Assembly (NCBI GenBank): GCA_048499675.1
Contig: JASNZL010000009.1
Coordinates: 303-64,302, forward strand
Reading direction: 5' to 3'
From: Candidatus Zambryskiibacteriota bacterium
Lineage (GTDB): Bacteria > Patescibacteriota > Minisyncoccia > Phycocordibacterales > WO2-35-19
Length of the DNA stretch: 64,000 nt
This document shows positions 585 to 1,665 of this stretch, in pieces. The first letter of the stretch is position 1. The number at the start of each line of letters is the position of its first letter. Both the position numbers and the translations under genes were made by a program. The notes under the pieces are model-generated. The model saw only the letters and a list, made by a program, of their open reading frames with translations, was not told the origin of the DNA and did not search any database.

Positions 585-655
585 AATCCAATCTCCTTTC
601 CTCAAGGTAAGCGATTTCTCGCTCCCCTATCCAAAGTACAGGCGAACCTGTCTAA
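585..655 (-). promoter_or_regulatory. conserved promoter plus 5' leader (copy 1) shared with 1593-1665. TATA(A/T)AT -10 box, then AGACRGGTTCGCCTGTACTTTGGATAGGGGAGCGAGAAATCGCTTACCTTGAGGRAAGGAGATT.
   Basis: ~62 nt, about 95% identical to the second copy. Contains an AGCGA-GAAA-UCGCU GNRA-tetraloop hairpin and an AAGGAG RBS. Confidence 0.55.
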
Positions 656-743
656 TTTATATTATTAACATATATTAAATAAAGTCAATATTGACCAAGC
701 ATCTACTGTGTTATAAATAAAGATTATTTCCTATTGTATTTTC

Positions 744-1364
744 TTGATTCAGTTAATACCTTATATTATTGTTAAGAATATGCCCATAAACTTTTTGACT
801 GTCTTATTAATCTTGATAACCGTTTTTAGTTTTATTTTTTTGTTAACCCTACTTTTCTTTTATTTATCAGGATTTATTTCTTTACTCTTTGGTGCGCCAT
901 ATATACCACTCTCAAGAAAACCTATTAAAAAAATTTTGTCATTTGGGGGCCTATCTTCAAATGATGTTTTCTTTGACTTGGGGTGTGGTGATGGTCGGAT
1001 CTTAATACCTAGCCTCCTTAATTTTAATGTCTCGAGAGCCGTTGGTTATGAAATAGCTCCATGGCCATATCTCAAAAGTCTGTTTTTAATTAAATATAAA
1101 CAAATAGAAAGAATAGAACTATTTAGAAAAAATTTTTTGGAGGAAGATTTTAGAGAAGCTACATTTATTTATCTTTATCTATTTCCAAAATTAGTAAACA
1201 AAATTGCTTATAAAATTGCATCAGGAAAGATGTATAATACCAAAATTTTATGTGTTGAATTTCCGATAGACTTAAATAAACACAATGAATTTAAACTTTT
1301 AAAATCTGGCAAAATAGATGGTCTTATGGTGTATTTGTATGTACTAAAACCCCGCAATTCATAA
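744..1364 (+). CDS. membrane-anchored class I SAM-dependent methyltransferase-like protein
   Basis: N-terminal TM helix. Motif I FDLGCGDGRI (GxGxG SAM-binding). AT-rich composition. Confidence 0.45.
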   Translation: MIQLIPYIIVKNMPINFLTVLLILITVFSFIFLLTLLFFYLSGFISLLFGAPYIPLSRKPIKKILSFGGLSSNDVFFDLGCGDGRILIPSLLNFNVSRAVGYEIAPWPYLKSLFLIKYKQIERIELFRKNFLEEDFREATFIYLYLFPKLVNKIAYKIASGKMYNTKILCVEFPIDLNKHNEFKLLKSGKIDGLMVYLYVLKPRNS

Positions 1365-1381
1365 AAACGAATTGCGGGGTT
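1351..1381. terminator. bidirectional terminator hairpin (ccccgcaattc-N8-gaattgcgggg)
   Basis: Perfect 11-bp stem with T-runs on both sides. Serves the 744..1364 (+) and 1398..1592 (-) genes. Confidence 0.6.
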
Positions 1382-1397
1382 TGTTCTTGTCCAGCTT

Positions 1398-1592
1398 TCA
1401 GTCTTCCCACTGACCCTTGGCGATTGCATCGCCAACAGTCTGACCGGAATCCACTCGAATTTGTCGCTCTTCGCCAGTCTCAGTGTTCACAACCTTATGA
1501 GAATTGGTATCCTCACCAGGCAGAATTGCATTGAGAAGATCGTGCGACATATTGCAACAAACTCCTTTGTCTTCCCACTTTTCAGCCATAAT
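1398..1592 (-). CDS. small acidic protein (64 aa, MAEKWEDKGVCCNMSHDLL...GQWED). The likely start is the ATG at 1592, not the 1610 start in the ORF track.
   Basis: Preceded by the same conserved leader/RBS (GGAGATTCTATTATG). GC-rich relative to background. Terminator lies downstream. Confidence 0.45.
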   Translation of the reverse strand: MMAEKWEDKGVCCNMSHDLLNAILPGEDTNSHKVVNTETGEERQIRVDSGQTVGDAIAKGQWED

Positions 1593-1665
1593 AGAATCTC
1601 CTTCCCTCAAGGTAAGCGATTTCTCGCTCCCCTATCCAAAGTACAGGCGAACCCGTCTGAATATA
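1593..1665 (-). promoter_or_regulatory. conserved promoter plus 5' leader (copy 2)
   Basis: See 585-655. The motif is identical, including the GNRA hairpin and RBS. Confidence 0.55.

Follow-up and report, generated by a model that had tools for sequence, protein, structure and literature searches.

What is nearly the same stretch of DNA doing in front of two small open reading frames (ORFs) that have no sequence in common? The question arises near the start of a 64-kb stretch of a Candidatus Zambryskiibacteriota bacterium (GenBank assembly GCA_048499675.1, contig JASNZL010000009.1, positions 303 to 64,302 of the forward strand; 64,000 nucleotides (nt), hereafter the window). An earlier note on this DNA had described a shared promoter and 5' leader with a GNRA-tetraloop hairpin, and had proposed a cis-acting RNA or an expression cassette. 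We find that the flagged repeat is a local instance of a Patescibacteria-wide structured mRNA leader, and that the window's copies are an atypical, GNRA-capped variant of it. The proposal of a cis-acting leader is borne out in that the element recurs before different genes in many genomes and its helices covary.

Two leader copies in the window

Both copies are read on the minus strand. A repeat search of the window returned a direct repeat of 72 nt (582-653 and 1587-1658, minus strand) with 94% identity and four mismatches, so the pair of near-identical segments is real. Its 49-nt core, GGTTCGCCTGTACTTTGGATAGGGGAGCGAGAAATCGCTTACCTTGAGG, is the same in both copies and has two matches in the window, against 0.00 expected from 100 shuffles. 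Each copy contains, in order, the -35 and -10 boxes, AGACRGG, UUCG, CCUGU, ACUUUGGAUAGG, GGAGCGA-GAAA-UCGCUUA, CCUUGAGGRAAGGAGAUU, N5 and ATG. Similarity sets in 7 nt past the best -10 hexamers, which is the predicted transcription start, and ends at the ATG. The two promoters are unlike in sequence and alike in geometry, and the two ORFs are unlike each other. Since the similarity is bounded by the predicted start and the ATG, the conserved unit is a 69-nt 5' untranslated region (UTR). A single A/G difference in the first hairpin (H1) turns an A-U pair into a G-U pair between the copies. Leader and ORFs have a G+C content of about 48%, compared with about 35% for the genome. The parts of the two units are as follows.

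683..688, minus strand: -35 box of promoter A, TTGACT, at -35 to -30 from A653 of AGACAGG, the geometry of 31 of 33 relatives
661..666, minus strand: -10 box of promoter A, AATAAT, 16 nt after TTGACT
585..653, minus strand: leader A, the 69-nt 5' UTR, with the predicted +1 at or next to A653; it stops before the ATG at 584-582
638..651, minus strand: H1 of leader A, ACAGG-UUCG-CCUGU, from the minimum free energy (MFE) fold; it starts at +3 and occupies covariation columns 5-9/20-24
605..628, minus strand: second hairpin (H2) of leader A, AGGGGAGCGA-GAAA-UCGCUUACCU, from the MFE fold; GNRA loop at 615-618
593..603, minus strand: GAGG and extended Shine-Dalgarno (SD) sequence AAAGGAG of leader A; helix P1 can form here between CUUU (636-633) and AAAG/AAGG
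498..584, minus strand: 28-aa acidic ORF, MYEDDQPDTPVSDDYSADSNADSGAVPE, a short form of the family Fam2, with fifteen homologues
1688..1693, minus strand: -35 box of promoter B, TTAACA
1666..1671, minus strand: -10 box of promoter B, TACTAT, 16 nt after TTAACA
1590..1658, minus strand: leader B, the 69-nt 5' UTR, with H1 at 1643-1656, H2 at 1610-1633, GAAA loop at 1620-1623 and SD GAAGGAG at 1598-1604
1398..1589, minus strand: 63-aa ORF, MAEKWEDKGVCCN..., of the family Fam1, with five homologues at 62-100% identity

As had been described, there is an AGCGA-GAAA-UCGCU hairpin and the ATG follows the SD. The GNRA hairpin is the tip of a longer helix of about 10 bp, however, and the 5'-terminal hairpin ACRGG-UUCG-CCUGU had been overlooked. 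The -10 box, previously read as TATA(A/T)AT, had been placed about 5 nt too far downstream; AATAAT (666-661) and TACTAT (1671-1666) are likelier. The size of the first ORF, 28 aa, stands, while the second has 63 aa, the figure of 64 having counted the stop.

The leader family and its structure

The contigs of all five homologues of the 63-aa ORF bear the same leader upstream, two of these ORFs having been extended into it by gene callers, and retrieval through proteins, which is independent of any DNA pattern, found it before orthologues. A degenerate DNA pattern gave eight loci in GTDB contigs (one genome per species), all of them metagenome-assembled genomes (MAGs) labelled Zambryskibacteria, Paceibacterota, Parcubacteria, Patescibacteria or Saccharibacteria. 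The same pattern gave 23 loci in metagenomes, about seven of which are chance matches without H1, and no full copy in viral contigs. We built a covariance model, R1, from 22 leaders. Over the retrieved loci it found 40 copies, 33 of them distinct, from MAGs and metagenomes with Parcubacteria-group or Saccharibacteria labels, including some missed by the pattern; over the window with filters off it returned the two known copies only, leader A at 73 bits (E 2.6e-15) and leader B at 69.7 bits (E 1.6e-14). Two or three copies lie within a few kb of each other on contigs L032, L047, L042, L043, L045 and L018. The ORFs that follow belong to at least ten unrelated families.

Across the family the unit consists of TTGACA-N17-TAnnnT, AGACAGG, H1, ACUUUGGAUAGG, H2, CCUUGAGGRAAGGAG and a start codon. 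TTGACA lies at -35 to -30 and TAnnnT at -13 to -8 from AGACAGG in 31 of the 33 versions, and the transcript is therefore expected to start at AGACAGG or 1 nt before it, with H1 at +3. On this start, predicted from promoter geometry, H1 would lie within the limit of about 4 nt from the end that marks a 5'-terminal stabiliser leader. Two shortened leaders (L009:4978-5019 and L022:184-227) keep the promoter, H1 and ACUUU and are missing H2, which shows that the leader is modular; one of the genes behind them is a DUF397 gene, the other a Fam5 gene that may be frameshifted. An element on the IMG/VR contig L040 (6248-6301) has an H1-like hairpin and UUUUGGAUAG, followed by unrelated GC-rich DNA without SD or ORF, and scores 17 bits with R1. 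Either chance or a different RNA with the same 5' module may account for it.

RNAalifold and an explicit structure agree on the layout: H1 of 5 bp, P1 (CUUU/AAAG), an internal loop (GGAU/UUGAGG) and H2 of 8 bp. In a covariation alignment of 34 distinct rows, 97.1% of the cells at helix positions are paired, compared with 88.5% in shuffles, and none of 500 shuffles reached the observed values. Ten pairs show changes on both sides, and controls with slid partners brought pairing down to 45-70%. Most of the covariation lies in H2, where five of the eight pairs change on both sides (one position reads AU20/UA6/GC5/CG2). At one H2 position G-U outnumbers every other pair, and it is also frequent at one position of H1, which fits an RNA of the sense strand and not duplex DNA or the opposite strand. 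The single-stranded blocks are near-invariant, and the synonymous sites of adjacent coding sequences are saturated (proportion of synonymous differences, pS, 0.5-0.96); constraint on the leader exceeds that on synonymous sites. The search patterns had TTTGGANAGG and CCTTGAGG as fixed blocks; loci retrieved by protein or model carry occasional substitutions in them (UUUAGA, GGAUGG, UCUUGAGG, CUCUGG). A canonical k-turn in the internal loop was rejected, by inspection only, as the GA positions and the bulge length are off consensus. The search for further copies and the covariation test that the earlier note had called for thus gave many copies and covarying helices.

In relatives, H2 typically carries a 9-nt loop in which a hexamer is preceded by 2 nt and followed by 1 nt. 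This hexamer reads as a perfect Watson-Crick palindrome in 27 of the 33 distinct leaders, compared with a mean of 2.2 in shuffled loops (maximum 9, 5000 shuffles). Eight hexamer types share this position (UAGCUA, AAGCUU, CAGCUG, CUGCAG, GAGCUC, CUCGAG, CAAUUG and UUGCAA), and all three hexamer "pairs" covary (48-53: UA15 CG8 AU5 GC2); the two inner ones are unable to form inside one hairpin. In cofolding, palindromic loops gain -8 to -16 kcal/mol as an extended duplex relative to two monomers; the gain is about -3 for non-palindromic loops and those of the window.

A 6-nt self-complementary apical loop with unpaired flanks is found in the dimerisation initiation site (DIS) of HIV-1 and in the dimerisation loop of the oskar 3' UTR (PMC7357161). 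The leader loop is similar in its length of about 9 nt, its self-complementary 6-mer, its unpaired flanks, often AA...A, and its compensatory changes. It is unlike them in belonging to the 5' leaders of bacterial mRNAs, not to viral genomes or eukaryotic 3' UTRs, in hexamers that are mostly AU-rich (UAGCUA, AAGCUU) instead of GC-rich, and in that dimerisation here is predicted only. A self-complementary 6-mer kept by compensatory change, the mark of a DIS-type loop, is present in 27 of 33 relatives and absent from the window copies, which have GAAA in place of the palindrome. The window loop, GAGAAAUC, makes two additional base pairs under the GAAA cap in both copies. Thus, the GNRA loop first noted is a lineage-specific replacement peculiar to the window's genome, not a conserved feature.

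Rfam 15 (4227 models) gave one tRNA and nothing else over the whole window at the gathering threshold, only chance matches far below threshold for positions 400-4600 at E<=10, and no match at E<=1 for four loci with eight leaders. Literature searches on RNA motifs, transcriptomes, and SD and promoter features of the candidate phyla radiation (CPR), on DUF397 motifs and on bacterial mRNA kissing loops turned up no account of the motif. The leader is a previously uncatalogued RNA family within a known kind, the cis-acting 5' UTR elements.

Proposed working and alternatives

We think it probable that each copy is a promoter-proximal structured 5' leader, specific to Patescibacteria and portable, together with a consensus sigma-70-type promoter, in front of many small-protein genes. 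By analogy with characterized leaders, it would likely set message stability and translation level. Counted from the predicted start, H1 would lie 2-3 nt from the 5' end and may shield the mRNA from 5'-end-dependent decay, as in ompA, aprE and ermC. GAGG and the extended SD RAAGGAG, 7-13 nt before the start codon, would recruit the 30S subunit strongly, in analogy to STAB-SD, and the module of P1, the GGAU-UUGAGG loop and H2 would insulate the ribosome-binding site (RBS) from the ORF that follows and could partly mask it. More speculatively, the exposed H2 hexamers of most relatives might pair loop to loop, which could bring a dependence on mRNA concentration or create a substrate for RNase III; in the window's genome, the replacement of the loop by 2 bp and GAAA in both copies would give a monomeric variant. 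As a portable cassette, the leader would be homogenised within a genome, and recombination at it would swap the downstream ORF. We extend this only tentatively to a post-transcriptional regulon across the Patescibacteria superphylum, with one leader on dozens of small-protein and peptide mRNAs, in which DIS-like kissing homodimers or pairs of sister mRNAs might tune stability or translation while the leader serves as a recombination handle for the exchange of small ORFs.

Hairpins at the 5' end and SD-like elements are known to stabilise mRNAs, as in E. coli ompA, in B. subtilis aprE and ermC, and in the STAB-SD of cryIIIA. The leader resembles these in having a hairpin, predicted to lie a few nt from the 5' end, ahead of an SD-like element that is strong or duplicated, and in being a short, portable 5' UTR for different genes; stabilisation would apply here by analogy. 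Unlike these cases, which concern single genes and show no family-wide conservation, one leader serves at least ten families across a superphylum, and it adds a conserved internal loop and a second covarying hairpin. The leader is also similar to the orphan 5' UTR motifs in Rfam, being conserved and structured from promoter to start codon, covarying, found by comparison, and with the SD partly paired. In contrast to those motifs and to riboswitch candidates, heterogeneous small proteins lie downstream, the length is only about 65 nt, and variants without H2 exist. The unusual properties of the leader are its multi-family "regulon" distribution with cassette-like recombination, and the covarying self-complementary loop.

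The cassette-like behaviour is seen in comparisons within and between genomes. Leaders within a genome are 94-100% identical, the variable apex of H2 included, while orthologous leaders of different genomes are 65-88% identical. Promoter and leader (at least 134 nt) are duplicated at 100% identity in L047, and the copies part at the start codon into different ORFs. L004 and L020 share 97% identity over 1.3 kb up to the SD, after which Fam1 stands in one and Fam2 in the other, with unrelated DNA. Past the same methyltransferase gene lies Fam2 in the window, a DUF397 gene in L001 and a fourth family in L019. This within-genome identity and the exchange of ORFs at the leader indicate that it acts as the homogenised, recombining head of a cassette.

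Several points weigh against the stabilising, translation-setting leader. P1 has just 4 bp that hardly vary, L018 (CUCU with AGGG) being the only possible case of compensation, and is therefore plausible but unproven. The H1/P1/H2 architecture appears in the thermodynamic folds of only about half of the leaders, and the accessibility of the SD is variable, its core having a mean unpaired probability of about 0.45 with a wide spread. The invariance of the flanks is partly a product of pattern-based locus finding, with few substitutions in the protein-retrieved loci. Most hexamers hold just two G-C pairs, from which weak kissing complexes are expected, and the palindrome is missing in six of 33 loops, both window copies included. 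The existence of H2-less leaders means that H2 is dispensable for some genes. Transcription start, stability effect and translation effect are all inferred from sequence. Finally, GGAU/UUGAGG is so strongly conserved as to suggest that it has a specific partner, be it a protein, a ligand or the ribosome, which the model leaves unnamed.

Such a partner is central to the main rival, a regulatory switch, in which a ligand or protein would bind GGAU/UUGAGG and ACUUU, shift the anti-SD pairing CUUU:AAGG and toggle a small-protein regulon. We consider this switch less likely than the stabilising leader. It would account for single-stranded nucleotides that are near-invariant over phylum-level distances while the helices covary, for the pairing of P1 with the 5' half of the SD in RNAalifold and many MFE folds, and for the many unrelated genes under one leader, as a regulon would have; GUAC-N3-GGAU and the GGA-containing SD loosely resemble two CsrA-type sites. 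However, covariation in the 4-bp P1 is almost nil, there is no second, mutually exclusive helix and no terminator, and the downstream gene set, at least ten unrelated families, has no metabolic theme that hints at a ligand. Moreover, H2-less leaders precede the same gene families, and no Rfam riboswitch matches. A tblastn search of about 0.4 Mb of loci turned up no CsrA, Hfq, CspA, KhpA or RNase III, which is at best a weak point against the switch and by itself uninformative, as the genomes are partial. For an RNA thermometer of the ROSE or fourU type, CUUU can pair with AAAG/AAGG of the SD; the unpaired probability of the SD core varies widely, as given above, and the downstream genes are not heat-shock genes.

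A DNA-level element is a far less probable reading. Here a dimeric DNA-binding protein would use the H2 dyad as its operator, or recombination at the dyad would capture small ORFs behind a fixed promoter, as perfect palindromes of 6-8 bp at the dyad centre, breakpoints between near-identical genomes exactly at the 3' end of the leader or the -35 box, and the doubled unit of L047 before different ORFs might suggest. Yet it is complementarity that is conserved and not sequence: H2 stems differ within one contig (L012/L014, L018a/b, L043a/b), and as DNA operators each would need its own protein. G-U dominates two stem positions (20-21 of 34), where duplex DNA or the other strand would be mismatched, and the 2+6+1 asymmetry of the loop is retained. 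No recombinase is consistently nearby, and homologous recombination between repeats of 70-130 nt accounts for the shuffling of modules. A mobile repeat of the miniature inverted-repeat transposable element (MITE), repetitive extragenic palindrome (REP) or integron cassette type was ruled out as well, each copy having its own -35/-10 and SD and neither a terminal repeat nor an attC site; a conserved 3' site is lacking, the terminators differ, and the repeat consists of promoter and leader only. We give least credence of all to non-coding small RNAs with accidental ORFs, or a recent local duplication that left a repeat without function. With 28 and 63 aa the ORFs are very short, and they have no Pfam match; GC-rich DNA in an AT-rich genome is a classic signal of non-coding RNA. 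Against this, the ratio of nonsynonymous to synonymous substitution (dN/dS) in Fam1 is 0.03-0.3 with saturated synonymous sites, and Fam2 keeps its Ser residues through switches between TCN and AGY codons, with pS (0.85) above the nonsynonymous proportion pN (0.28). There are 15 Fam2 and five Fam1 homologues, and every copy has a strong SD at the proper distance. Judged by this amino-acid-level selection, which also supports the translation of both ORFs, the two window ORFs are real genes of conserved families under purifying selection, and a non-coding small RNA was rejected on these codon-level signals. As to duplication, the leader stands in dozens of genomes without flanking homology, and the similarity is confined to the stretch from transcription start to ATG, which rules out a segmental duplication. 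Copies confined to a larger duplicated segment without conserved structure, the outcome that the earlier note had set against its own proposal, are not what we found, because the leader recurs before different genes in many genomes with covarying helices. On the comparative data, the recent-duplication reading is already refuted.

Downstream genes and their setting

The leader-driven families are diverse. Fam1 (63 aa) includes the longer window ORF. Fam2 is acidic (...C..YRCGDDDSVSSDDYSxDSDADS...), with short Cys-less forms in the 28-aa window ORF, P0016 and P0019. A third family matches DUF397 in Pfam (2.6e-14); the ORFs of L001 and L009 score 53.6 and 47.8 bits against DUF397 (PF04149, cut-off 24), and neither window ORF is a DUF397 protein. 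Three further families are hydrophilic or Cys-containing peptides, and the remainder include a Cys/Asp-rich peptide of 71 aa, a 176-aa protein without annotation and a GRDP-like protein of a known Pfam family. Pfam and NCBIfam gave no match to either window ORF, and the 63-aa protein, modelled by AlphaFold2 with a predicted local distance difference test (pLDDT) score of 74, had no match at E<1 in a Foldseek search of the PDB. For P0002, P0004, P0007, P0011 and P0012, public gene calls run upstream into the leader and give spurious N-termini (...CTLDRGG..LRKGE), which indicates that these small proteins are systematically mis-annotated in MAGs.

The neighbours of the two window ORFs are as follows.

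1..477, plus strand: 3' part of a gene for an HExxH protein (putative metallopeptidase), cut by the window edge, with a weak DUF6782 match; the conserved convergent partner of Fam2
460..488, no strand: hairpin terminator of the 28-aa ORF and the convergent HExxH gene, read from the sequence
780..1364, plus strand: gene for a membrane-anchored class I methyltransferase, the conserved convergent partner of Fam1
1347..1382, no strand: bidirectional terminator of the 63-aa ORF and the methyltransferase gene

As first described, the two ORFs have no sequence in common, and each ends at a hairpin terminator common to a convergent gene. The methyltransferase matches a protein-lysine N-methyltransferase model at E 4e-18, under that model's cut-off, and its synteny with Fam1 recurs in L001, L004/6 and L041. 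The convergent pairing of Fam2 with HExxH is also found in L020, L045, L047/49 and L042, and this partner appears in at least six contexts. A maturase-like gene of the radical S-adenosylmethionine (SAM)/SPASM type follows the HExxH gene in L047/48/49 and L020, and another lies near a Cys-rich leader-driven ORF in L045. The maturase-like genes match FibroRumin (8e-74), PapB (5e-50) and TIGR04463 (2e-62), all under the curated cut-offs. In the window, the edge cuts away what follows the HExxH gene, and the peptide has no Cys.

Neighbourhoods of Fam2 that resemble loci for ribosomally synthesised and post-translationally modified peptides (RiPPs), with HExxH, radical-SAM/SPASM and a further leader-driven peptide, lie at L047:10001-13684, L020:1-2206 and L045:880-6607, and also hold a weak LiaK/YydH-like HExxH protein. 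The leader-driven Cys/Asp-rich ORF of 71 aa belongs to L045. An FtsX-ABC-HlyD exporter is encoded upstream in the window, L004 and L047. In the window (6568-10645 and 16263-18425) the genes run from CorA and an S41 peptidase to FtsX, an ABC ATPase and an HlyD/YknX-like adaptor, in an order common to L004 and L047, and a PD-(D/E)XK nuclease gene (8808-9218) is inserted within the exporter operon.

The yydF epipeptide locus of B. subtilis comprises a peptide, a radical-SAM enzyme, an HExxH protease and an ABC transporter. Fam2 resembles RiPP loci of this type in that a gene for a peptide of about 40 aa, with its own strong promoter, stands beside an HExxH protein, and in L047, L020 and L045 beside or near radical-SAM/SPASM maturase-like genes, with the FtsX-ABC-HlyD exporter upstream. 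It is unlike them in that the maturase matches are below equivalog cut-offs, the window peptide is Cys-less and modification is hypothetical; other leader-driven ORFs (DUF397, Fam1, GRDP-like and the 176-aa protein) are folded small proteins, unlike RiPP precursors. The context of maturase, HExxH protein and exporter makes "precursor peptide" a live hypothesis for Fam2, not for the whole gene set. The precursor peptides suggested for this locus are thus partly supported: Fam2 relatives lie beside HExxH genes and several beside maturase-like genes, but the window peptide lacks the family's Cys pair.

The small ORFs had also been suggested as possible immunity or regulator peptides linked to the secreted paralogs nearby (1824-2990 and 3181-4356, minus strand), GC-rich (50-55%) proteins of 388 and 391 aa with signal peptides and no Pfam match. 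That link is not supported. The paralogs have their own near-identical promoter, TTGACA-18-TATAGT, each with a short leader, and a leader shared with the small ORFs was ruled out on the different promoter and leader; in relatives, the small ORFs occur without them. With L004 and L047 as reference, an insertion that carries the paralogs separates the exporter operon from the leader modules; the relatives' loci lack them.

Three further features of the window were observed. Several large minus-strand ORFs at about 23000-32200 and at 37830-38000 contain dense repeats with a 9-nt period (GTCCTATTC-like on the plus strand) and look like collagen-like G-X-Y repeat proteins. A GC-rich hairpin repeat (CCTGCCCGCAATGCTAYCGCATA...GCAGGCGG) occurs in both orientations in this AT-rich genome (10667-10751, 13932-13977, 43042-43086 and 60791-60884) and looks REP-like. 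In the region 19928-20593, tRNA-Gly(CCC) (20134-20205, minus strand) is accompanied by partial copies of its ends, about 40-47 nt long and 180 and 380 nt away, possibly left over from an integration or a duplication.

A large part of bacterial diversity belongs to the Patescibacteria (CPR), whose control of gene expression is very little known. One leader before at least ten small-protein families marks out a candidate regulon and could enter Rfam as a new RNA family. It flags understudied genes, among them tiny acidic or Cys-rich peptides, DUF397 proteins and possible RiPP precursors, and as a natural promoter-plus-leader cassette it is an obvious starting part for expression constructs. Its covarying self-complementary loop opens bacterial mRNA dimerisation to direct test.

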